From sequence record MN850574.1: DNA of 64,000 bases. One strand, given 5' to 3'. The position numbers and the translations under genes are program-made. The notes under the pieces are model-generated. The model was given only the letters and a program-made list of their open reading frames with translations, had not been told where the DNA came from and searched no databases. This document shows positions 9,853 through 58,652 of this stretch, one piece after another (the first letter of the stretch is position 1; every line of letters begins with the position of its first letter). Origin of the DNA: Escherichia phage kaaroe.

Positions 9853-10407
9853 TTACACATCAGCCTTTTCCATTTCTCGAATGAATGCGTTAATAAATTG
9901 TTTAATTTGTGTAGGATCTATGATCTTGATCTTGCGTCGTTCCTCATTGCGGAGGATCGCATCTTCCAGTGTGTCTACTGCCGATAGTGCACCTTGAAAC
10001 TGCAAATGACGATGATGAATATCCCCTTTATCATACCAATTGCTTGATCCTTTCGGATATTCGGTAAGATTCCAATACTTGTTTCCGTCAATATCAACGT
10101 GGTATAATACTTGATTTCCTCCTACGTTTGCATATCGTTGTTCGGCTGATTCATATGCTGTCTCTTGATCGGTGATCCAGTCATGGAACGGATCGTATAC
10201 GTCATTAAGCATCAGCAAGATCCAATAAAGTTGTTGGTTTCCGTATACTTCATATGCAACTTGTTCCGGTCGTGGACTACCTTGAATGTAATATGTTTGT
10301 ATGTTATAATCGGAAATTATTGCGTTGAAATATGCGCGGTAATTGCGCACAATGTCAGTAATCATCTTGCCGTTGTATTCAATGGCAGGGAAGAAAGAAA
10401 AGAGCAT
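9853..10407 (-). CDS. 53: baseplate wedge protein gp53
   Basis: 184 aa; YYIKGSPRP, QLYWILLM, GGNQVLYHV, KIKII motifs matching remembered T4 gp53. Confidence 0.85.
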   Translation of the reverse strand: MLFSFFPAIEYNGKMITDIVRNYRAYFNAIISDYNIQTYYIQGSPRPEQVAYEVYGNQQLYWILLMLNDVYDPFHDWITDQETAYESAEQRYANVGGNQVLYHVDIDGNKYWNLTEYPKGSSNWYDKGDIHHRHLQFQGALSAVDTLEDAILRNEERRKIKIIDPTQIKQFINAFIREMEKADV

Positions 10408-10439
10408 TTTAGCACCCTCAATTGATAAATAGTATTATG

Positions 10440-10447
10440 TATTTATA
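10440..10447 (-). promoter_or_regulatory. T4-type late promoter box TATAAATA for the gp53-gp8 operon
   Basis: Exact TATAAATA on minus strand (plus-strand tatttata), 32 nt upstream of gp53 ATG. Confidence 0.5.
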
Positions 10448-10462
10448 ATAAAGGGTGCTAAA

Positions 10463-10936
10463 ATGGGAGGATCTAACACTTATAAGGGCAAGTATGTTCC
10501 TGAGAATAAGGAAAAGTATAAAGGGGATATACGTAAGATCACATACCGTTCAAGCTGGGAAAGATGGATCATGCAGTGGCTAGACCGCAATCCTAGAGTT
10601 GCAAAATGGGGATCTGAGACCGTAGTAATTCCTTATGAGTCATCAACAGACGGGAAAAGACACAGATACTTTATGGATTTTTACGTTAAGTTTGATGATG
10701 GCAAGGAGCATTTATGGGAAGTTAAACCAGCTAAAGAGACAAGGCCACCGGAAAAGCCAAAAAGAATGACCGCGAAGACAAAGCAACGATATATGCATGA
10801 AGTATGGACGTACACAAAAAATACTGAAAAATGGTTAGCTGCCGTGAAATTATGCCAAAAGCATAACATGGAGTTTAAGATCATAACCGAACATGCATTA
10901 AAGAAAGTGTTTGGCTTTAAAGGGCTTAACAAATAG
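10463..10936 (+). CDS. 4: head completion protein gp4
   Basis: 157 aa; YRSSWE, IPYES, similarity to remembered T4 gp4; divergent from gp53 as in T4. Confidence 0.75.
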   Translation: MGGSNTYKGKYVPENKEKYKGDIRKITYRSSWERWIMQWLDRNPRVAKWGSETVVIPYESSTDGKRHRYFMDFYVKFDDGKEHLWEVKPAKETRPPEKPKRMTAKTKQRYMHEVWTYTKNTEKWLAAVKLCQKHNMEFKIITEHALKKVFGFKGLNK

Positions 10937-14266: not shown

Positions 14267-14273
14267 TTTTATA

Positions 14274-14304
14274 CCCCGAAAATTTTTCGGGGTTTTTTGT
14301 TTTT
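14274..14304 (+). terminator. intrinsic terminator
   Basis: ccccgaaaa-t-ttttcgggg hairpin then TTTTTTGTTTTT. Confidence 0.7.
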
Positions 14305-14309
14305 ATGTG

Positions 14310-14338
14310 TTGACAACCATAAACGACTATAGCATAAT
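14310..14338 (+). promoter_or_regulatory. early promoter TTGACA-17-CATAAT
   Basis: -35 at 14310-14315, -10 at 14333-14338, conserved leader CATCGAAACGAAACAC, RBS AGGAGAATCAAAAATG. Confidence 0.6.
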
Positions 14339-14376
14339 GCACACATCGAAACGAAACACACTTAGGAGAATCAAAA

Positions 14377-14754
14377 ATGATGATGATGTTTAAAGATAAA
14401 TTCGAATGTCACTACACCCGTAACTTTGACTTAGTATCCCGCTACTACATTCATAAAGAAACTGGCACGCAAGTAGTTCTTGAATCTCACAGCGAAGTAG
14501 GATTCGATTCAACAAAAGTAGCAATTAGTGCTCGCTTCTGGGATAACGGCAAATTTGCTTATATCGCTTGGAACGACGACGAAAATGTAATTACAGTAGC
14601 TTTCGGTGATGACTACTACACTAAAAAGACTTTCGATAGCAAGCCATCAAATGAATACCTGAAAGCGTATGTGCAGCACATGTTCCAACGTGTTCTGACC
14701 GGAATGGAAATCAATGTCATGAAAGACATTGTAGACGAAGTAAAATATTCTTAA
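14377..14754 (+). CDS. hypothetical early protein (125 aa)
   Basis: ORF directly behind promoter with strong RBS. Confidence 0.6.
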   Translation: MMMMFKDKFECHYTRNFDLVSRYYIHKETGTQVVLESHSEVGFDSTKVAISARFWDNGKFAYIAWNDDENVITVAFGDDYYTKKTFDSKPSNEYLKAYVQHMFQRVLTGMEINVMKDIVDEVKYS

Positions 14755-14760
14755 AAATAG

Positions 14761-14789
14761 TTGACAACATGAAACGGGGGTAGTAAGAT
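14761..14789 (+). promoter_or_regulatory. early promoter with embedded inverted repeat (PeSL-like)
   Basis: TTGACA 14761-14766, -10 TAAGAT 14784-14789; IR GGGGGTAGTAAGATACCCC spanning the spacer and -10. Confidence 0.6.
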
Positions 14790-14819
14790 ACCCCACAAAC
14801 AAACGAAAGGAGAATCAAA

Positions 14820-14978
14820 ATGAAATTCATCGGTAAAACTTTTATGTTCGTAGCTGGTACTCTGTTTACTGCAACTCTGTTAGCTGGTGGCTTAGATATC
14901 TTTACTGCCTTTGAAACTTTCGGGTATACTGTAGCATCGGGTGCTCTCTTCGGATTGGGTTTAGCGATTAGCAAATAA
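14820..14978 (+). CDS. small membrane protein (52 aa)
   Basis: ATG preceded by AAAGGAGAATCAAA; hydrophobic; below ORF-track length cutoff. Confidence 0.5.
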   Translation: MKFIGKTFMFVAGTLFTATLLAGGLDIFTAFETFGYTVASGALFGLGLAISK

Positions 14979-14987
14979 GGTGATAAT

Positions 14988-15191
14988 ATGGAATTGGATA
15001 TGGTTAAAGCAAAATTTATGGGTAAGGATAAGAGCGGTAAAACATTTGTTATTAATAGAACATTGTTTCGCTCTGACCTTAAGTGGGTAACACAACAATT
15101 TGCGGAAGTCAACGAGGCAGTTGTGACATGCTTCGTTGATGATAAAAAAGTTTTTGAAATTGATCGTCGTGGGGTGTCTAATGATCACTAA
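14988..15191 (+). CDS. hypothetical protein (67 aa)
   Basis: ORF with GGTGA RBS. Confidence 0.5.
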   Translation: MELDMVKAKFMGKDKSGKTFVINRTLFRSDLKWVTQQFAEVNEAVVTCFVDDKKVFEIDRRGVSNDH

Positions 15192-15378
15192 ACTGTTTAG
15201 CAATACTTTGTTTCTGATTGCATTTGTTTTCTTTCTGTGTCTGATGATCGGTGTTGTTACAGTAGGTAGCTATTCCGGTGTTACCTTAGATGATTTTTGC
15301 AAACTTGTTATGGTCTCGTTTATACCTAGTATTCTGCTCGCTTTATGTGGTGCTTTCAGATGGCTCTGTGATCTATGA
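15181..15378 (+). CDS. 2-TM membrane miniprotein (65 aa)
   Basis: ATG at 15181 overlapping upstream 3' end; two hydrophobic helices. Confidence 0.5.
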   Translation: MITKLFSNTLFLIAFVFFLCLMIGVVTVGSYSGVTLDDFCKLVMVSFIPSILLALCGAFRWLCDL

Positions 15379-15485
15379 ATGAACAGGAACGAATGATGTT
15401 GATAGGTGGACCGGAGTTCACTAAATTTGATGCAATTCTTATTGCGTTGGGTTTTCTTATGATCTGTTGTATGGTGGCGCTATGA
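15375..15485 (+). CDS. small membrane protein (36 aa)
   Basis: ATGA start/stop overlap with upstream and downstream genes (translational coupling). Confidence 0.35.
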   Translation: MNEQERMMLIGGPEFTKFDAILIALGFLMICCMVAL

Positions 15486-15706
15486 GTAGCATAAAATATT
15501 TTGCTTTCTTGTGTTTTATGATGTTCTTTACATTCTTAGCATGTGTTTTCTTTACATGGCTTGCTCATGTTGATAATGCAACCGGACCGTTTTACTTCTT
15601 CTGTGTGTTGTCTGTGTTGACTGGTGCTCTTGTTACGTGGATGATTCGAGATTGTTACGTAATGTATAAGTTTGAAAAGACTCGACCGAAATGGGGCAAA
15701 CGATGA
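15482..15706 (+). CDS. 2-TM membrane miniprotein (74 aa)
   Basis: ATGA overlap; hydrophobic helices. Confidence 0.5.
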   Translation: MSSIKYFAFLCFMMFFTFLACVFFTWLAHVDNATGPFYFFCVLSVLTGALVTWMIRDCYVMYKFEKTRPKWGKR

Positions 15707-15885
15707 AATTATTTGCGTGGCTAATTATTTTAAATGTAATTGTTAAGACCGTTCTCGCTGGTTTACTGATGATACATAGCACGAAACCAGAAGAAGCATT
15801 AACGTATTTTGTTTCTTATGTGCTGGGATTCTTGCTTACTGCGTGGATGTGTGATGAATATCGAAGAATTGAGGTAAAACCATGA
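15703..15885 (+). CDS. 2-TM membrane miniprotein (60 aa)
   Basis: ATGA overlap; hydrophobic. Confidence 0.5.
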   Translation: MKLFAWLIILNVIVKTVLAGLLMIHSTKPEEALTYFVSYVLGFLLTAWMCDEYRRIEVKP

Positions 15886-16100
15886 AAATGACTTTTTATA
15901 TCTTAGCAAGTATCATTCTTGTGATCTCTTCTGCCTTATTTGCATTTCTTACCGTTTGGGGGGTCTGTACTGATGCGAAGCCGTGGGATATCGTAGAAAA
16001 TACGGTTATGTTTATTATTAGTGTCATGTGTCTTTTTGATGCATTTAACTCTATCAAGGAAGAAGACCAAAAACGTCGCGATAGAAAGCGATATAAATAA
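15882..16100 (+). CDS. 2-TM membrane miniprotein (72 aa) with basic C-tail
   Basis: ATGA overlap; two hydrophobic helices then KRRDRKRYK. Confidence 0.55.
   Translation: MKMTFYILASIILVISSALFAFLTVWGVCTDAKPWDIVENTVMFIISVMCLFDAFNSIKEEDQKRRDRKRYK
16092..16099 (+). promoter_or_regulatory. T4-type late promoter box TATAAATA
   Basis: Exact TATAAATA overlapping stop codon of upstream ORF; followed by 150 nt non-coding structured region. Confidence 0.35.
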
Positions 16101-16248
16101 TAGTGAACTAAAGACAGCGCGGTTAGAATGATTTGGACGTCACCTAGCCGCATTTATTGCGGCGTATGGGCGATCCGGTACGCTAAAGCATTAACTTGCT
16201 AGGCCGCTAGCAGGTTGGAGACAAGGAAGATTCGCTACCTTCCCTATA
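16101..16248 (+). ncRNA. candidate small structured RNA (unclassified)
   Basis: No ORF; three hairpins (16147-16163, 16197-16212, 16225-16243) between a late promoter box and a UUCG-loop terminator. Confidence 0.25.
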
Positions 16249-16277
16249 AGCCACTCTTCGGAGTGGCTTTTTTATTG
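16249..16277 (+). terminator. intrinsic terminator (UUCG tetraloop)
   Basis: agccactc-ttcg-gagtggct hairpin followed by TTTTTTATT. Confidence 0.7.
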
Positions 16278-16301
16278 CCTAAAATTTTTTTAAAAAAGTT
16301 G

Positions 16302-16330
16302 TTGACACCAGATCCGGCCTATAGCATAAT
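16302..16330 (+). promoter_or_regulatory. early promoter TTGACA-17-CATAAT (PeSL-like)
   Basis: -35 16302-16307, -10 16325-16330; downstream leader ACACCCATCGAAACGAAACAC. Confidence 0.65.
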
Positions 16331-16376
16331 ACACCCATCGAAACGAAACACACTTTCTTAAACGGAGAATCAAATT

Positions 16377-16562
16377 ATGGCACGTCGCATCACTAAAGCA
16401 CTGAAAGCAGTAAGCAAAGAAAACGTAGTAGCTATTCTGGTAATCTGGGGTTATAACGAAGAATCCGCTAAACAGAAAGTTGAAGCAGGGTTTGAACTGG
16501 CAGTAAAAGCAATGCCGAATGATGACTCTGTAGGACTGGCAAACTATATTGCATATTTCTGA
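16377..16562 (+). CDS. hypothetical early protein (61 aa)
   Basis: ORF behind promoter; codon usage biased to ctg/cgt/gaa/aaa. Confidence 0.6.
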   Translation: MARRITKALKAVSKENVVAILVIWGYNEESAKQKVEAGFELAVKAMPNDDSVGLANYIAYF

Positions 16563-16570
16563 TAAAAGTG

Positions 16571-16599
16571 TTGACAGGGGAGGATAACTCCCCTACAAT
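16571..16599 (+). promoter_or_regulatory. early promoter with embedded inverted repeat (PeSL-like)
   Basis: TTGACA 16571-16576, -10 TACAAT 16594-16599, IR GGGGAGG-ATAA-CTCCCC in spacer. Confidence 0.65.
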
Positions 16600-16628
16600 A
16601 CAACCATCAACGAAACGGGAGAATCAAA

Positions 16629-16856
16629 ATGATTAACTTTAAAGACGCAGCAAAAGAAATTATCGACTTTGAGCGCGAACTGTTTGAGATGGAACCGCAG
16701 ATGGGTAAAATGGAACTGGCTAACCAGATCTGGGCTACTAGACTGAATCCGGCTGATCGCTTAGAGATCATGAACCTTGTAGGTGCAAGCGACATGAAAG
16801 GTGGTGCTATGGCTAAACTCCGCAAATGCACCGCATACATTGCAGAACAACTTTAA
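16629..16856 (+). CDS. hypothetical early protein (75 aa)
   Basis: ORF behind promoter with GGGAGAATCAAAATG RBS. Confidence 0.6.
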   Translation: MINFKDAAKEIIDFERELFEMEPQMGKMELANQIWATRLNPADRLEIMNLVGASDMKGGAMAKLRKCTAYIAEQL

Positions 16857-16868
16857 TTGGAGGGTTTT

Positions 16869-17057
16869 ATGGGAGAGAAACCATTAGTACAGCTAAGAGT
16901 ACGCTATAACCAGATTTTAGCATTACTTAAAGCTGAGGGTGTAGATCCATCGGACCGCGAGGCTGCAAAAGCGTGTCTATCTGATACGGTACAGCCAAAA
17001 CAAAATTATGCTTGCTATATGTACTTTCAAAATCGTTTGAATAATGTTAAGTGTTGA
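16869..17057 (+). CDS. hypothetical protein (62 aa)
   Basis: ATG at 16869 with GGAGGG RBS (track ORF begins at TTG 16857). Confidence 0.5.
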   Translation: MGEKPLVQLRVRYNQILALLKAEGVDPSDREAAKACLSDTVQPKQNYACYMYFQNRLNNVKC

Positions 17058-17066
17058 GGTGATACT

Positions 17067-17255
17067 ATGGAAGACCAAATTGAACAATTACGCGAATCCG
17101 CTAAAGAGCATGGTATGAGCGAAGGATTTGTTGAATGGTTTATCTCTAAAAAGGTTGATTCCTGCGGGTGCTTTAACTTCATTACTATGTCCATTATGTG
17201 GGAGGGTTGGAAAGGTGCTGTAGAAACTGCCTTAAAAATTTTGAAAAAAGACTAA
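17067..17255 (+). CDS. hypothetical protein (62 aa)
   Basis: ORF with GAGGTGA RBS. Confidence 0.5.
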   Translation: MEDQIEQLRESAKEHGMSEGFVEWFISKKVDSCGCFNFITMSIMWEGWKGAVETALKILKKD

Positions 17256-17263
17256 AAAAGTTG

Positions 17264-17292
17264 TTGACACGCGATAGGGTGTATAGCATAAT
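17264..17292 (+). promoter_or_regulatory. early promoter TTGACA-17-CATAAT with IR GGGTGTAT-AGCATA-ATACACCC
   Basis: -35 17264-17269, -10 17287-17292; perfect 8-bp inverted repeat overlapping -10. Confidence 0.65.
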
Positions 17293-17334
17293 ACACCCAT
17301 CGAAACGAAACACGAACTACTAAGGAGTATCAAA

Positions 17335-17661
17335 ATGAAACCAGTATCTGTTAAAGTTATCTTCTCTGAATCTTCTGTATTCGCTAACGCAAACGAAGTA
17401 TTCCACTTCGAAGACTTCGAGCGTAAAGCACAGGACGCGGCAGCAAAAGCCTATGAAAGCGAATATGACAAAACTCAAATCGAGGTTACTTTCGAAAACG
17501 GCACTACTTACGCTTGCCGCCTTGACCTGGGTGATCGTCTGTCTGGCTTCCGTCACCATGTAGAGAAGACAATCGCTTTCTCTAAAACCGAAAAAGGAAA
17601 ACACTACTTTTCTGTTTTCGGTACTGAAAATCTGGATTTCTTGAAAACTGTTTCTTTCTAA
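17335..17661 (+). CDS. hypothetical abundant early protein (108 aa)
   Basis: ORF behind promoter; strongly biased codon usage (ttc, ctg, cgt, ggt, aac) suggesting high expression. Confidence 0.65.
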   Translation: MKPVSVKVIFSESSVFANANEVFHFEDFERKAQDAAAKAYESEYDKTQIEVTFENGTTYACRLDLGDRLSGFRHHVEKTIAFSKTEKGKHYFSVFGTENLDFLKTVSF

Positions 17662-17669
17662 GGTATATT

Positions 17670-17852
17670 ATGAAAAAGATTAATTGGTTAGCGAACATAG
17701 GCGCGGTCTGCGCCTTTAACATCCTCGGATGGATAATGTTACATTTTGATGAGCGAGTTTCAAAATGTGAGGGTGTATTGATTCTCGGATCTGCTAGCAT
17801 ATTCATTATGCTGTATGCGATTGCTGTTGACTTAATCCGCGATGGTTGTTAA
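17670..17852 (+). CDS. 2-TM membrane miniprotein (60 aa)
   Basis: Hydrophobic ORF with RBS. Confidence 0.5.
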   Translation: MKKINWLANIGAVCAFNILGWIMLHFDERVSKCEGVLILGSASIFIMLYAIAVDLIRDGC

Positions 17853-17853
17853 T

Positions 17854-18051
17854 ATGACGCTCAAGAATATGTTTTTTAACTTCGTAGGTGCTTCCATTCT
17901 TTCAATGCTATATCTTGTGATTGTATGGATGGGCGACTATGAATTAACTAACGATGAAAATTTGACAGTGTTTACTGTCTTGACGATGATCATTTACACT
18001 GTCTTTCTTGTCTTGGATTTTATTGTGTTTCTTTACAAAACGGTGACTTGA
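17854..18051 (+). CDS. 2-TM membrane miniprotein (65 aa)
   Basis: ATG 1 nt after upstream stop (alternative in-frame ATG at 17842). Confidence 0.5.
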   Translation: MTLKNMFFNFVGASILSMLYLVIVWMGDYELTNDENLTVFTVLTMIIYTVFLVLDFIVFLYKTVT

Positions 18052-18248
18052 TGACGATTAGTAAAAATGATATTGGTTTTGTTGCGGGTATCGCTAGCGT
18101 CTTTACTGTTGTTATTTTGCTAATGCTTTTACCCGGTGTATTCTCTGACCAGATTGAATTGTATGTAGCTTTTATCTGTTGCATTTATACTTGGTTTGCA
18201 ATGTTTGTGATTAGTCTAATTATGCAATTCGTCGTTAACAAATTTTAG
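18051..18248 (+). CDS. 2-TM membrane miniprotein (65 aa)
   Basis: ATG overlaps upstream stop (TGATG); track ORF begins at TTG 18048. Confidence 0.5.
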   Translation: MTISKNDIGFVAGIASVFTVVILLMLLPGVFSDQIELYVAFICCIYTWFAMFVISLIMQFVVNKF

Positions 18249-18269
18249 ATTTAATGTGAGGATTATATT

Positions 18270-18590
18270 ATGAGCAAACTGTTTGAAACTCCGCGTGAAA
18301 TTCTGATTGACAAACTGAAAGAACGTGGTTTTAAAATTAAAGATGCAACCAAATACAGCCGAATTGATGAAATTAAGTTGCATTCTCTTGATGAACTGGT
18401 AGAATATGTTGCGGCGGTTGCTGATCCGCAGTTTGATGTGATTGTAGGCGACGTTGAATATCTCGATAATGTATATTCATTCTTCACTTATGGTAAAATT
18501 GTGTCTGTGAAAATTTCATTCTGTGAAAATGTGGAGGTGCTTGCTAGTGAACCAGAAAAACCAACTGACAACGGTCCTTCGGCAGCGTAA
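18270..18590 (+). CDS. hypothetical protein (106 aa)
   Basis: ORF with GAGGATTATATTATG RBS. Confidence 0.55.
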   Translation: MSKLFETPREILIDKLKERGFKIKDATKYSRIDEIKLHSLDELVEYVAAVADPQFDVIVGDVEYLDNVYSFFTYGKIVSVKISFCENVEVLASEPEKPTDNGPSAA

Positions 18591-26258: not shown

Positions 26259-26298
26259 CCCCAGATTATAAATATAACTGAATATTTTAAATCTGGGG
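26259..26298 (+). promoter_or_regulatory. stem-loop (9-bp stem) enclosing an exact late promoter box TATAAATA
   Basis: ccccagatt...aatctgggg inverted repeat; TATAAATA at 26267-26274; 34 nt upstream of ATG 26308. Confidence 0.4.
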
Positions 26299-26610: not shown

Positions 26611-26995
26611 TTTTCTAAAGACGTCCGAAGAGGGGAAAGCTAATAAAGTTGACCGCTTTATCGGTGAATGTCTGATGAGTGTTACTTATATGCATTCTGC
26701 GCATTTTGGGGTAACTGGTCCTAGATCTTATGCAAAACATAAGGCTCTAGAAGAGTTCTATCTTGAAATGCAAGAATTGGTTGATGATTTCACTGAAACC
26801 AATATTGGGATCACTGGTCGTTATCAGCCAACGTTGGTCGTCCGCAAGGAGATTAGCGAAATTGCCTATTTGCAAGAGTTAACGCAAATGGCTAGTGAGA
26901 TTTATAATGATGTTGATAGCTCGTTACAGAGCGTTTTAGACGATATCAAAGCTCTATGTTTTAAAACAATTTATAAACTCACTCGACTGTCTTAA
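26597..26995 (+). CDS. hypothetical protein (132 aa), weak ferritin/Dps-like helix pattern
   Basis: ATG at 26597 (track ORF begins 26498); pattern YMHSAHFGVTG...LEEFYLE unverified. Confidence 0.5.
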   Translation: MKFIDFLKTSEEGKANKVDRFIGECLMSVTYMHSAHFGVTGPRSYAKHKALEEFYLEMQELVDDFTETNIGITGRYQPTLVVRKEISEIAYLQELTQMASEIYNDVDSSLQSVLDDIKALCFKTIYKLTRLS

Positions 26996-28852: not shown

Positions 28853-29638
28853 ATGGCAATATCTTCTGGATGGGTAGGATCATCTGCTGTGTCCGAGACT
28901 GGTCAACGGTGGATGAGCGCCGCAATGCAAGCTGTACGCTTAGGTCGTCCGGCGTATATGTCGGCAATGGTCGGACGCTCTAAAGAGATTCATTATAGCA
29001 TTGGTGCTAGTAACTCTTACAATAAAGACACTCTTATTAACTGGATGAAAGCACAAGGATCTACTCCGGTAGTAATTACTATCACGGGTAATATTGTTTC
29101 CCAATCTACTGGCGTTCCTTGTCTTGATTTCCCTAGCTCACTGACAAACGAATATGTAACACTCATTATTAACTCTGGTGTTCATGTATTAGGTCGTGGA
29201 GGAAATGGCGGAAGTAACTCTGCTGGTGGAGCAGGAGGAAATGCAATAAATAACGGAATTGGAACTCGTTTAAGAATAAACAATAATGGTATTATTGGTG
29301 GTGGCGGTGGTGGCGGTGCTGGTGCTAGATACAATCCTTTCCCTCAAATGGATATGAAATTTGGCGGCGGTGGAGGCCGTCCATTTGGTGCTGCGGGTGC
29401 GGCAGGAGGCGGCGCAGCGGCAGCATCTGCTGGTACAATTTCTGCCCCAGGTAAAGGCACTGTTTCTGGGGTTCATTATGGAGGAGATGGTGGAGATTTG
29501 GGAGCTGCTGGCAAATCTTCATATATTAAAGGTGGTACTGGTGGAACTGTTCACTCGGGTGGTGCTGCGGGTAAAGCTGTTACTGGTAATGCCCCTCGCT
29601 GGGATAAAGTAGGCACGATCTACGGTGCTCGCGTGTAA
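28853..29638 (+). CDS. glycine-rich protein resembling gp38-type tail-fibre adhesin
   Basis: 261 aa; N-terminus GSSAVSETGQRWMS and GRGGNGGSNSAGGAGG plus poly-Gly tracts resemble remembered T2-type gp38. Confidence 0.5.
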   Translation: MAISSGWVGSSAVSETGQRWMSAAMQAVRLGRPAYMSAMVGRSKEIHYSIGASNSYNKDTLINWMKAQGSTPVVITITGNIVSQSTGVPCLDFPSSLTNEYVTLIINSGVHVLGRGGNGGSNSAGGAGGNAINNGIGTRLRINNNGIIGGGGGGGAGARYNPFPQMDMKFGGGGGRPFGAAGAAGGGAAAASAGTISAPGKGTVSGVHYGGDGGDLGAAGKSSYIKGGTGGTVHSGGAAGKAVTGNAPRWDKVGTIYGARV

Positions 29639-29645
29639 TTTTATG

Positions 29646-29677
29646 GGCTATCCTTCGGGGTAGCCTTTTTTGTTTTT
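29646..29677 (+). terminator. intrinsic terminator (UUCG tetraloop)
   Basis: ggctatcc-ttcg-gggtagcc hairpin then TTTTTTGTTTTT. Confidence 0.7.
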
Positions 29678-29682
29678 GGGTG

Positions 29683-49714: not shown

Positions 49715-50261
49715 TTCTGATTTGTTGGTAATGGAACATTTTATTAAATTGGTGCACACATACACACTAAAACAATCACATTGCAAGAATCCGATCTATG
49801 GCTATCTGAAAGCGAGTATTGCTAAAATGTGGGGTCAGCCAGTGGTTAAGATGTGGTATGATGACGGTTATCGTCGTTACCTTAAAGTGATTCATCCACA
49901 GGATTTGATGGTAACTATGGACATTGGCGACTTTGTAAAAGACAAAGTAGAATCCATTATTAAGAGTGTGGTTGGTGAATATAATCCGATTGTATATGGT
50001 GCTTTCGTACAGTGGAAACAATCCAGCAAGTATTATTTTCCGAATACTCCATTGACGTTAACAGGTTGGATCTCTGTCATGCATAGTGGGGTATTCCTGG
50101 AAGCGTCAGAGACAATGTATAAAGGGTATATTCTCCCGCATCGACTGGTGAAATGTGATTACCGCTTGACTGTAGGTGAATTTCGCGATATTCTGGAACA
50201 GCAAGCGGAAGACCTGCAAGGTGAAATTGAAGAATTTTTAGAGGAACATAAACTAAAATGA
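49689..50261 (+). CDS. hypothetical protein (190 aa)
   Basis: ATG at 49689 with GAGGAACATATTATG RBS (track begins 49665). Confidence 0.5.
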   Translation: MNTTMVAADSDLLVMEHFIKLVHTYTLKQSHCKNPIYGYLKASIAKMWGQPVVKMWYDDGYRRYLKVIHPQDLMVTMDIGDFVKDKVESIIKSVVGEYNPIVYGAFVQWKQSSKYYFPNTPLTLTGWISVMHSGVFLEASETMYKGYILPHRLVKCDYRLTVGEFRDILEQQAEDLQGEIEEFLEEHKLK

Positions 50262-50521
50262 TTCTATCGATGACCTACCTTAGACACAGGGTTATAGAAG
50301 GTCTTCGCGAATATCTGGCATTGAATAAAGGGATTTATGTTGATCCCTTTATGACATATGATCCGGCGACACTGGATTATGTGATCATGTTGCCAGATCG
50401 CAGAGACACACTAGTTAAAGTGAAGGCGGCAAGTGTTTACAATATTGATGAAGATGTGTTAGCATTTAATATTATGGAATGTGTGATTGCGGAGTGGATT
50501 AATGGCAAAGTTAAATTTTAA
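50258..50521 (+). CDS. hypothetical protein (87 aa)
   Basis: ATGA overlap with upstream gene. Confidence 0.5.
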   Translation: MILSMTYLRHRVIEGLREYLALNKGIYVDPFMTYDPATLDYVIMLPDRRDTLVKVKAASVYNIDEDVLAFNIMECVIAEWINGKVKF

Positions 50522-55528: not shown

Positions 55529-55891
55529 ATGATTGAAATTAATTTGATTAGTCCTGAAAACTTCCTTAAAATTAAGGAAACTTTAACCCGCTGCGGCATT
55601 GCCAACAATCGAGACAAGACGCTGTATCAGTCTTGTCATATTCTCCAGAAGAAAGGGCGCTATTACATCGTTCATTTCAAGGAGTTGTTGAAATTAGATG
55701 GTCGTAGTGTTAAAATGACGTGGGAAGATGAATTACGCCGTAATAACATTGCAAAACTTCTGGCGCAGTGGAATCTGTGTACCCTGATTGATAGTGATTT
55801 TGAAACTACCGAAGTTAATAATTTCCGTGTATTGTCTTTCAAACAGAAAGAAGAGTGGACGCTGATCGAGAAATATCAGATCGGGCGATAA
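55529..55891 (+). CDS. regA: translational repressor RegA
   Basis: 120 aa; KIKETLTRCGIANNRDKTLYQSCHILQKKGRYYIVHFKE nearly identical to remembered T4 RegA. Confidence 0.85.
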   Translation: MIEINLISPENFLKIKETLTRCGIANNRDKTLYQSCHILQKKGRYYIVHFKELLKLDGRSVKMTWEDELRRNNIAKLLAQWNLCTLIDSDFETTEVNNFRVLSFKQKEEWTLIEKYQIGR

Positions 55892-55912
55892 GATACTGAT
55901 GGGATAGGGGTA

Positions 55913-55941
55913 TTGACAAACTAAGTCGATTCCCCTATAAT
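55913..55941 (+). promoter_or_regulatory. sigma70-like promoter TTGACA-17-TATAAT for gene 43
   Basis: -35 55913-55918, -10 55936-55941. Confidence 0.6.
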
Positions 55942-55973
55942 GAGTGTCTTTCGTAAGTGAAGGAGTTTATATT

Positions 55974-58652
55974 ATGTATTTTCTGTCATGTGAGCGAGTA
56001 GGTGATAAGATCTACGAGCGTTATATTGATGATGCTGGACAAGAACAAGAGCGTTACGTTGAATATACGCCAACTTTATTTCATCATGCCGCGCCTGGTA
56101 TGGTTACGAATTATAAAGATATCTATGGCAAGCCTTGCATTGCTAAAAAATTCCCCTCTATGAACGAGGCCAACAAATGGCGTAAAAAGATGGGAGAAAT
56201 GGGGCAAGAGGCGCTAGGGATGGATGATTTTATCATCTCCTATCTGTCTGATACGTATAAAGGCGAGATTCGATATGACCGAAATAAAATCCGTGTAGCA
56301 TGGGTTGATATCGAGGTCACTGCCCCAGAATTTCCTAAACCAGAAGAAGCGAAATATCCTATCGATGCAATTACGCATTATGATTCCGTACATGATCGTT
56401 TCTTTGTATTTGATTTGAAAGGAAAAAACGGTGAAATCTGGGAATCTAGCAAGTCTATTCTTCGACCTGATATTGTAGAGCGCGTTGTTTATAACGTCTA
56501 TGACACAGAAGATGAATTGCTGTTAGAATACATCCGATTCTTTGAGGAAAACCGACCCGTTGGTTTCACTGGCTGGAACACAGAAACATTCGATATTCCA
56601 TATATCATTAAACGTATCAGTAATAAGTTCGGAAGTAGAACCGCTAACCGTCTAAGCCCGTGCGGTAAGATTAAATCCCGAATCTCACAGGATGATTTTG
56701 GCAACGAGCGTGAAGCATTTACGATCATGGGGATCGAAAGCCTTGATTATATTGACCTGTACAAGAAATTTAGCTTTACGACTCAACCAACATATGCATT
56801 AGATTATGTTGCTGAATATGAGACAGGAATCGGTAAGGTTGATTATGATGGTCCGTTAAAGAAATTGCGTGATGACAACCATCAACTTTACATCGATTAT
56901 AACATCGGCGACGTTGATCGTGTTCTGGCGATTGATAAAAAGCGTGGATTTATCGATCTGGTGTATAGTCTATGTTTCTATGCAAAGATTAAATTTAACC
57001 ATGTTTATAACCCGATGAAAGTGTGGGATGCTATTATCTTCGGATCTCTGAAAGCTGAGGGTAAAGTAGTACCGGAAAATAAGATACAGCCTAAGCAGAC
57101 GTATCCAGGCGCATTCGTAAAAGAACCTGTGCCGAATGCTTACCGTTGGATGATGAGCTTTGACTTAACAAGTCTGTACCCATCTATTATTCGACAGGTT
57201 AATATTTCGCCTGAAACAATCGCTGGATCTTTTGATGCTGCACCGATGCACGAGTATATCAATAAAACTGCACCACGTCCGAGTGATGAGTATTCTTGCT
57301 CGCCTAACGGATGGATGTATAGAAAAGATATTCACGGTATCGTACCGATTGAGATTAAAAAGGTATTCGATCAGCGTAAGCAGTACAAAAACATGATGTT
57401 GGCATGTGATCGCAATGCTGAACTCTGTAAAGCGATTCTACACGATGAAAATCATGTTTATGGAGGAACCATTAACTATAGCGTTGAAGTGCGTCACGAC
57501 TTTGATGAAGCGTTTAAATCGATGCTTTCTGAATTAAGTAAAGATGCCTTAGAGAAATTGCTGGAAGAATGTAAAGACGAGTCGATCTTGTGCAATACAA
57601 ACCAGCTTTCTCGTAAAGTTTTGATCAACTCCCTTTATGGTGCGTTGGGGAATCCTAAATTCCGTTTTTATGATCTCCGTAACGCTAGTGCGATCACCTT
57701 GTTTGGTCAGCTTGCAATTCAGTGGATTGAGCGTAAGATTAACGAATACTTAAACGAGCTTTGTGGAACAACCGATTTTGCATATGTTCGTTATTGTGAT
57801 ACTGACTCCGTTTATGTGCTGGTTAACAATGTTGTTGATAAGGTTGGCGGGGAAGACCGTTTCGACGATACCGAAAAACTTGTTGACTTCCTTGATAATT
57901 TCGGTAAACATCGAATGGAACCTATTATCGACAAGGGATATCGCGAGTTATGCGAGTACATGAACAACTATGAGCACTTGATGTTTATGGACCGTGAGGC
58001 AATTGCTGGTCCTCCATTGAAATCTGCGGGTATCGGTGGATTCTGGACTGGTAAAAAGCGTTATGCTCTTAATGTTTGGGATATGGAAGGAACGCGCTTT
58101 GCTGAACCTAAGCTAAAAATCATGGGCTTGGAAACGCAACGTAGCTCCACCCCTAAAGCATGTCAGAAATCACTGAAAGAATGTATTCGCCGTATGTTGC
58201 AGGAAGGTGAAGAGTCATTGCAGGAATACTACGGTATTTTTGAGCAAGAATTTAGAAAACTTGACTATCTTGATGTTGCTGCGGTATCATCTGCAAACAA
58301 CCTACAGAAATACAGCGATTCAAACGGGTATCCGATTAAGGGTTGTCCGTATGCGGTTAAGAGTGTATTGTGTTATAATCGTAATGCTCGAAAATTCGGA
58401 CTAGATCCGATTCGTGAAGGCGAGAAGGTTATGATTGTACCGCTGAAAGATCGAAATCCGTTTGGAGAAATCTGTTTTGGTTGGTTGTCCGGTACTCGTA
58501 TTCCTCCAGAAATTGAATCAGAGGTGTTAAAGTGGTTAGACTGGCCTTTGTTGTTTAATAAGACTTTCGTCAAACCACTGGAGAACATTACCACGGCTGC
58601 AAAGCTGCAATATGAAAAAGTGGCATCTCTTACAGACCTGTTTGACATTTAA
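55974..58652 (+). CDS. 43: DNA polymerase gp43 (family B)
   Basis: ATG at 55974 with AGGAG RBS; exonuclease and polymerase motifs (DIEV, SLYPSII, YGDTDS) collinear with T4 gp43. Confidence 0.95.
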   Translation: MYFLSCERVGDKIYERYIDDAGQEQERYVEYTPTLFHHAAPGMVTNYKDIYGKPCIAKKFPSMNEANKWRKKMGEMGQEALGMDDFIISYLSDTYKGEIRYDRNKIRVAWVDIEVTAPEFPKPEEAKYPIDAITHYDSVHDRFFVFDLKGKNGEIWESSKSILRPDIVERVVYNVYDTEDELLLEYIRFFEENRPVGFTGWNTETFDIPYIIKRISNKFGSRTANRLSPCGKIKSRISQDDFGNEREAFTIMGIESLDYIDLYKKFSFTTQPTYALDYVAEYETGIGKVDYDGPLKKLRDDNHQLYIDYNIGDVDRVLAIDKKRGFIDLVYSLCFYAKIKFNHVYNPMKVWDAIIFGSLKAEGKVVPENKIQPKQTYPGAFVKEPVPNAYRWMMSFDLTSLYPSIIRQVNISPETIAGSFDAAPMHEYINKTAPRPSDEYSCSPNGWMYRKDIHGIVPIEIKKVFDQRKQYKNMMLACDRNAELCKAILHDENHVYGGTINYSVEVRHDFDEAFKSMLSELSKDALEKLLEECKDESILCNTNQLSRKVLINSLYGALGNPKFRFYDLRNASAITLFGQLAIQWIERKINEYLNELCGTTDFAYVRYCDTDSVYVLVNNVVDKVGGEDRFDDTEKLVDFLDNFGKHRMEPIIDKGYRELCEYMNNYEHLMFMDREAIAGPPLKSAGIGGFWTGKKRYALNVWDMEGTRFAEPKLKIMGLETQRSSTPKACQKSLKECIRRMLQEGEESLQEYYGIFEQEFRKLDYLDVAAVSSANNLQKYSDSNGYPIKGCPYAVKSVLCYNRNARKFGLDPIREGEKVMIVPLKDRNPFGEICFGWLSGTRIPPEIESEVLKWLDWPLLFNKTFVKPLENITTAAKLQYEKVASLTDLFDI

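Follow-up and report, generated by a model that had tools for sequence, protein, structure and literature searches.

A conserved structured non-coding element behind the dmd operon of Krischvirus, probably an undescribed phage small RNA

Few viruses have been studied as thoroughly as the virulent T4-type phages, and to our knowledge almost no non-coding RNA has been assigned in them beyond the tRNAs and two stable RNAs of T4. In the genome of Escherichia phage kaaroe (record MN850574.1, analyzed here as a window of 64,000 nucleotides), a spacer downstream of the antitoxin gene dmd follows a T4-type late-promoter-like box, folds strongly and ends in an intrinsic terminator. Does this spacer encode a small RNA of its own, or is it the 3' end of an mRNA? 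A first-pass annotation made from the letters alone had proposed a structured small RNA driven by the late promoter. It had named RNA folding and covariance with related phages as checks, and it held that a plain 3' UTR of the upstream operon lacking conservation would speak against the proposal.

Position and fold of the element

Sequence identity places the window in a Krischvirus genome (RB49-like, T4-type Straboviridae). The region 15600-16700 matched 58 phage records at 97-99% (97-100% for RB49-like phages), all of them Krischvirus (RB49, phi1, JSE, GEC-3S and relatives). A promoter scan of the + strand found two sigma-70 early promoters, TTGACA-17-CATAAT at 14310-14338 and a second one at 14761-14789, both in line with the promoters annotated in GEC-3S. 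These promoters mark the start of an operon of which the hairpin element forms the 3' end. The sole named gene of the operon is dmd (14988-15191, + strand), the antitoxin against RnlA/LsoA, recognized by Pfam PF17587 at 7.6e-16, by PHROG 2102 and by the existing annotation; five tiny hydrophobic ORFans follow. These five ORFs, consecutive and overlapping (15136-16100, 36-80 aa), are all strongly hydrophobic, fall into PHROG families without known function and are far more variable than the RNA downstream. The last of them (15882-16100, + strand, 72 aa) is ORF118c of RB49, found in Krischvirus only, with its stop codon located within the TATAAATA box. In annotated relatives, the element sits between RB49 ORF118c and ORF117c. 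Since the + strand scan predicted no terminator between 14794 and 16248, the region of the element would be transcribed early from the promoters at 14310 and 14761, regardless of the box. By its predicted transcription, the hairpin element is the untranslated 3' end of this early sigma-70 dmd operon.

The 3' neighbour of the element is a DUF7421 gene (PF24196; 16377-16562, 61 aa) that is 100% identical in most Krischvirus. Some 115 T1-like siphophages (Drexlerviridae-type, with genomes of about 50 kb) that infect E. coli and Shigella carry homologues with about 72-80% amino acid identity, and this sharing looks like gene exchange among unrelated virulent coliphages.

The element itself (16103-16277, + strand) comprises about 170 nt of non-coding sequence, namely a leader, four hairpins and the terminator. 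The 5' leader GUGAACUAAAGACAGC (16103-16118) is unpaired. Hairpin H1 (16119-16151) is built of 8 bp, an internal loop, 4 bp and the apical loop UUGGAC, with two U-G pairs; the apical loop carries a C-to-T change in two of the sequences compared (L022 and L023). A single-stranded A/U-rich linker, AUUUAUU(R)C (16152-16160), leads to H3 (16161-16184), in which a conserved 7-bp base carries a hypervariable tip. We counted at least seven haplotypes of this tip, with indels of 1-2 nt; sequence and length change and the hairpin is kept. H4 (16191-16219) pairs over 12 bp, interrupted by a bulged U, and carries the loop GCCG; at 16193 the kaaroe window has an A, at a position occupied by a C that can pair in 18 of the 19 distinct relatives. 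H5 (16225-16243) consists of the stem GGAAG/CUUCC and an invariant 9-nt loop, AUUCGCUAC. Stable hairpins had thus been correctly announced by the first-pass annotation, but four of them precede the terminator, not three.

Folding gave a minimum free energy of -66 kcal/mol for the 186-nt stretch (z = -3.9), and none of 200 dinucleotide shuffles was as stable. The GC content of the element is 47-49%, compared to 35-40% upstream. After adjustment for GC, the + strand fold ranked 9th among 1419 windows of 180 nt. In addition, the + strand (-66.2 kcal/mol) folded 7 kcal/mol better than the - strand (-59.2 kcal/mol). Other 180-nt windows of the + strand reached GC-corrected z-scores of -3.1 to -3.95, equal to or better than the element (10316-10540, 26651-26875, 29351-29530, 50231-50455 and 55811-55990); the first of these covers the spacer between divergent late and early promoters.

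Terminator, PeSL cassette and late-promoter-like box

An intrinsic terminator with a 9-bp stem, a UUCG loop and a U6AUU tail was predicted at 16248-16277 (+ strand), in agreement with the first-pass description of a UUCG-tetraloop terminator with a T-run, and is annotated in GEC-3S and G37-3. Its DNA reads AAGCCACTC-TTCG-GAGTGGCTT followed by TTTTTTATT, and its RNA AAGCCACUC-UUCG-GAGUGGCUU followed by U6AUU. Directly downstream (16278-16351, + strand), we observed the A/T-rich tract TTTTTTTAAAAAAG, a sigma-70 early promoter TTGACA-17-CATAAT (-35 at 16302-16307, -10 at 16325-16330), predicted to drive the ORF 16377-16562, and a repeated 5' leader. Promoter and leader are spanned by a repeat family (D1) with four copies from 14299 to 22670.

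This arrangement recalls the promoter-early stem-loop (PeSL) cassettes of RB49, phi1 and JSE, whose stem-loops were shown to terminate transcription and whose promoters fire early (Arbiol et al., 2010; PMC2839356). The stretch 16248-16351 combines a consensus sigma-70 promoter and its A/T tract with a predicted terminator stem-loop and with repetition. The likeness extends from the terminator hairpin (16248-16269) and the A/T-rich tract to the promoter (16302-16330) with its leader, in a hyperplastic early region of the same phage group. On these features, the terminator and the following promoter are an already known PeSL cassette, a membership that the first-pass annotation had overlooked. 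In contrast, the hairpins at 16119-16243 are single-copy, lie outside the repeated unit and lack G-run/C-run stems. The PeSL literature that we found does not mention them, and a search of the 64-kb window returned no paralogues or repeats of H1 to H5. Since these hairpins are unrepeated, PeSL status is limited to 16248-16351.

Several observations concern the cassettes as such. In phage FL15 (L007, 555-578; equivalent to 16257-16260), the terminator loop is inverted from TTCG to CGAA and the stem is kept, a change that we read as a hairpin-loop inversion at the DNA level. The next early promoter (16571-16599) has another PeSL layout, with a perfect stem-loop, GGGGAGGATAACTCCCC, within the spacer between -35 and -10 and not upstream. 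A second UUCG-loop terminator, GGGCUAUCCUUCGGGGUAGCCUUUUUU at 29640-29678, closely resembles that of the element; the weak covariance-model match at 29500-29678 was rejected as a paralogue, being only this similar terminator. Finally, the metagenomic contigs L003, L023 and L024 stop at the repeated PeSL promoter, about 200-250 nt past ORF118c, which suggests that short-read assembly of Krischvirus tends to be interrupted by PeSL repeats.

At the other end of the element, the T4-type late-promoter-like box TATAAATA is present as an exact match at 16092-16099 (+ strand). As the first-pass annotation had stated, it lies over the stop of the ORF 15882-16100, overlapping TAT-AAA-TAA, its two final sense codons and the stop codon (16098-16100). 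Assuming the geometry of T4 late promoters, we place the predicted transcript start near 16105. The motif is not enriched, with three occurrences in the 64-kb window versus 5.9 expected. The two others, at 10440-10447 (- strand) and 26267-26274 (+ strand), are intergenic and each about 33 nt before a gene start; they are placed like genuine late promoters and look functional, and spurious boxes appear to be rare. Of 22 sequences, 21 have the box at 16092-16099 unaltered while adjacent codons vary, but it consists of coding and stop codons and involves just three synonymous positions. In the remaining sequence (L018, MAVA01000028.1), a 14-nt deletion removes the box, and the RNA scaffold is identical to the consensus of its relatives. 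This same sequence, over the equivalent of 16066-16103, combines the deletion with two extra A's, so that ORF118c stays open and acquires a new C-terminus with a TGA stop directly before the RNA. The literature searched contained no transcript data for any Krischvirus. Overall, we give a discrete late transcript starting at the box roughly even chances. The claim that the RNA is late-promoter-driven thus keeps its exact and nearly unchanged box, but the region would be transcribed early anyway and the variant lacking the box keeps the RNA.

Sequence constraint and competing readings

In 14 aligned sequences, the scaffold of the element, that is the element minus H3, showed only 4 variable sites out of 120. 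Third codon positions were variable at 34 of 72 sites in the upstream ORF (p = 1.5e-13 against the scaffold, Fisher test) and at 8 of 61 sites in the very conserved downstream ORF (p = 0.023; with L003, the most diverged sequence, omitted, p = 0.008). In the H3 region, 10 of 27 sites differed among the sequences (p = 5e-6 in the comparison with the scaffold). Loops and single-stranded linkers were invariant in 19 distinct sequences, in a neighbourhood where 13-47% of synonymous sites vary. These counts show a conservation of the scaffold comparable to that of non-synonymous codon positions. By position the region is the 3' UTR of the predicted operon, and its scaffold is conserved. In comparison with the diverged contig L003/L005 (84% identity overall), the element was 94% identical, within the top 14% of windows of the same size. 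The whole block 16100-16700 is low in diversity, and part of the conservation of the element could reflect linkage to a recently spread segment. However, linkage explains neither the deficit of changes relative to downstream synonymous sites nor the concentration of variable sites in a single hairpin tip.

Covariance with related phages, the other proposed check, was also analyzed. Among 20 distinct sequences, 41 of the 48 pairs never vary, which makes covariation nearly uninformative, and a double change occurs in one pair only (H3 pair 60/83: G-C in 16 sequences, G-U in one, A-U in two). The stem changes observed mostly keep pairing: the single change seen in the H1 stems turns U-A into U-G, and A-U becomes G-U once in the H5 stem and also in H3. 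The sole break of pairing is at the outer end of H4 and belongs to the haplotype of the kaaroe window, with its A at 16193. Moreover, the + strand element contains seven conserved G-U pairs. Such pairs are A-C mismatches on the complementary strand, which favours an RNA made from the + strand.

The haplotypes of the H3 tip (16159-16183) and of the downstream promoter spacer (16308-16324) co-vary among phages: GGGCGATCC occurs with GATCCGG, GGGGTGA(T/C)CC with GATCACG, and GGGGTTAATCC with AATCGT. As both are unconstrained spots of the block, linkage is the simplest explanation. A kissing interaction of the H3 tip with the H5 loop was rejected, because the tip varies and the loop is invariant, without covariation.

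Taken together, these data describe a conserved non-coding structured element of one phage genus that is undescribed in the literature and databases searched. We give slightly better than even credence to the reading that 16103-16277 encodes a Krischvirus-specific structured non-coding RNA that acts on a partner via its invariant loops and linkers. The structured RNA of the first-pass annotation is well founded as regards its non-coding nature, its strong + strand fold and genus-wide purifying selection; its existence as a discrete small RNA is what we infer from these. Early in infection the RNA would arise as the 3' end of the dmd operon; later, a discrete RNA of about 170 nt would probably be made as well, from a start near 16105 at the TATAAATA box to the terminator. 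With the terminator hairpin and its U-tail, the hairpins before it and the A/U-rich linkers, it would be a stable RNA, of the sRNA type or derived from a 3' UTR. Sequence-specific contacts with a protein or RNA partner would be made by the invariant loops and linkers, and the H3 tip would lie outside the recognized surface. A role in contacting a partner is more likely than that of a passive barrier to decay. On this basis, the element is probably an undescribed phage small RNA.

The main rival is a purely cis-acting 3' UTR that ends the dmd transcript, insulates the next promoter and protects the mRNA from 3' exonucleases, with no separate functional RNA and with TATAAATA as a by-product of the Tyr-Lys-stop codons. 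We regard it as possible but rather unlikely. It agrees with the position of the element as the 3' UTR of an early operon in which no terminator is predicted between 14794 and 16248, with a terminator that belongs to a PeSL cassette, whose stem-loops are demonstrated terminators (PMC2839356), and with a box that is not enriched in the window and is missing from one variant. However, a barrier to decay requires structure and not sequence, and yet loops and linkers are invariant in the 19 distinct sequences. In the same direction, one stem-loop suffices in other PeSL cassettes of the window, such as 14273-14293, and the two other TATAAATA boxes look functional in a window where spurious ones appear rare.

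A more far-reaching version of the RNA reading, which we hold to be unlikely, is a trans-acting anti-defence or host-takeover RNA co-transcribed with the gene of Dmd. Supplied by early read-through as well as by a late promoter of its own, it would sequester a host RNA-binding protein or nuclease with its loops, or silence mRNAs, and the fast-evolving H3 tip would reflect either an arms race or a tolerated spacer. If true, this would be the first functional small RNA to be assigned outside the tRNA region in a virulent T4-type phage.

The constraint could also act on the DNA itself, as leftover PeSL stem-loops, as a hotspot of recombination, or as a site bound by a protein or involved in replication. 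This finds an echo in the hyperplastic region, for which PeSL-PeSL recombination is documented (PMC2839356), in the loop inversion of the FL15 terminator and in metagenomic contigs that often break shortly downstream. Nevertheless, the hairpins belong to no repeat family of the window and are devoid of the G-run/C-run stems typical of PeSL. The seven conserved G-U pairs and the G-U-preserving changes would be A-C mismatches in the complement or in a cruciform, and the + strand is the better folder by 7 kcal/mol; we consider a DNA-level element quite improbable. We judge equally improbable that the element has no function and hitch-hikes with the conserved downstream block, its fold being a chance property of a GC-richer spacer. 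Such a view accommodates the low diversity of the whole 16100-16700 block, the minimal covariation and a rank merely within the top 14% of same-size windows against L003/L005, but not the scaffold at 4 of 120 variable sites versus 8 of 61 downstream synonymous ones (p = 0.023; 0.008 without L003). The sharp clustering of variation in one hairpin tip, the folding z-score of -3.9 and the retention of the element in every matching genome despite regional gene turnover also contradict it.

The first-pass annotation had described about 150 nt without an ORF, and the comparison of relatives upholds this, as the three reading frames that can be drawn mechanically are frameshifted or truncated among them and none is conserved. 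The ATG ORF (16129-16203, 24 aa) is 15, 19, 24 or 40 codons long among 19 relatives, owing to the 1-2 nt indels in H3. The TTG ORF (16215-16361, 48 aa) spans 22-48 codons and changes with the length of the T-run, and the ORF on the minus strand (15896-16153, 85 aa) spans 14-85 codons. By their reading frames, these alignments show the element to be non-coding. A micro-protein made from the ATG or the TTG ORF can practically be dismissed, even if the TTG ORF is annotated in two GenBank records and one more record has a minus-strand ORF further downstream, given these unstable lengths on both strands, the lack of a Shine-Dalgarno sequence before the ATG ORF and the course of the TTG ORF across the terminator and the promoter.

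Distribution and resemblance to known RNAs

All 58 Krischvirus records matching the flanks and ORF118c contain the element, with 94.8-100% identity, and so do eight metagenomic contigs (IMG/VR, JGI/ENA metagenomes and a large protein collection). A blastn search in 'distant' mode against 50,697 phage records returned Krischvirus and terminator-only matches and nothing else. Three pattern scans of IMG/VR gave the same two contigs each time, and scanning metagenomes turned up two Krischvirus contigs as well as one chance match. Among the 185,579 species genomes of GTDB, a single chance 20-mer was detected, in an Acidobacteria MAG. BLAST against 5,426 E. coli genomes gave terminator-like matches only, with no other similarity or complementarity to the host. 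Across the whole window, Rfam 15 yielded no match at gathering thresholds; the best sub-threshold scores (EF3314_EF3315, 23.6 versus 100; RNAI, 22.9 versus 47) aligned generic hairpins and the terminator. As there is one copy of the RNA per genome and these searches gave no distant homologues, a function cannot be borrowed from a relative.

The first-pass annotation had likened the element to the small stable RNAs of T4. These, rnaC and rnaD (species 1 and 2), are phage-encoded, structured RNAs of 120-140 nt without known function. They share with the element a small size, a phage origin and a structure to which no function is attached. In contrast, the T4 RNAs are encoded beside tRNA-Arg within the tRNA cluster, and ARAGORN predicted neither tRNA genes nor a tmRNA in the 64-kb window, which also agrees with the first-pass statement that no tRNA cloverleaf fits. 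A covariance model of the element (R1) found no match at E<=10 in T4 69500-73500. The analogy holds only loosely, and a family relationship was not borne out.

The architecture comes closest to that of bacterial sRNAs derived from 3' UTRs and sharing the terminator of their mRNA, of the CpxQ and SroC type. The resemblance lies in the operon 3' end, the shared intrinsic terminator with its U-tail, the A/U-rich linkers beside hairpins and a possible internal promoter besides processing from a longer mRNA. Unlike typical Hfq class I sRNAs, the element is far more structured, and it is encoded by a virulent phage. Sequence features of the Hfq/ProQ type are present (U6AUU tail, CCCUAUAAG 5' of the terminator stem, AUUUAUU linker), as features of the sequence only. 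A duplex scan against 90 translation starts of the window remained within the range of shuffles. Temperate coliphages encode regulatory sRNAs with defined Hfq dependence and targets (bioRxiv 10.1101/2024.10.31.621285; PMC13502914). These are likewise short phage non-coding RNAs that end in an intrinsic terminator and may act on host or phage factors; in contrast, the element comes from a virulent T4-type phage.

Other identities were considered and rejected. For an RNA anti-CRISPR, local alignment to the I-E and I-F repeats of E. coli was no better than with shuffles (727/2000 and 1210/2000), and the resemblance of H4 to the I-F repeat was lost in this test. A type III antitoxin RNA (ToxI-like, with tandem repeats of about 36 nt beside a toxin gene) does not fit, the element containing no direct repeats. 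An attenuator was discarded because GCCGC/GCGGC, the alternative pairing, can form only in the haplotype of the kaaroe window, other phages having ACAGC there. RegB sites follow the consensus GGAGRAYARAA, in which a C at position 6 is extremely rare (PMC1702504); the candidate site GGAGACAAGGA has this C and is partly paired, and is probably a poor one.

The part of the genome that holds the element, directly behind dmd, changes fastest and is rich in anti-defence functions. Its constraint, its genus-wide presence and this location make it a concrete and cheap experimental target, narrow in distribution (one genus) but easily testable. If it is a real regulator, it would open small-RNA biology in lytic therapy coliphages; if it is just a 3' UTR stabilizer, it would refine the PeSL model of operon punctuation. 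We also observed three CTAG sites within 67 nt, two of which form the opposite arms of one stem.
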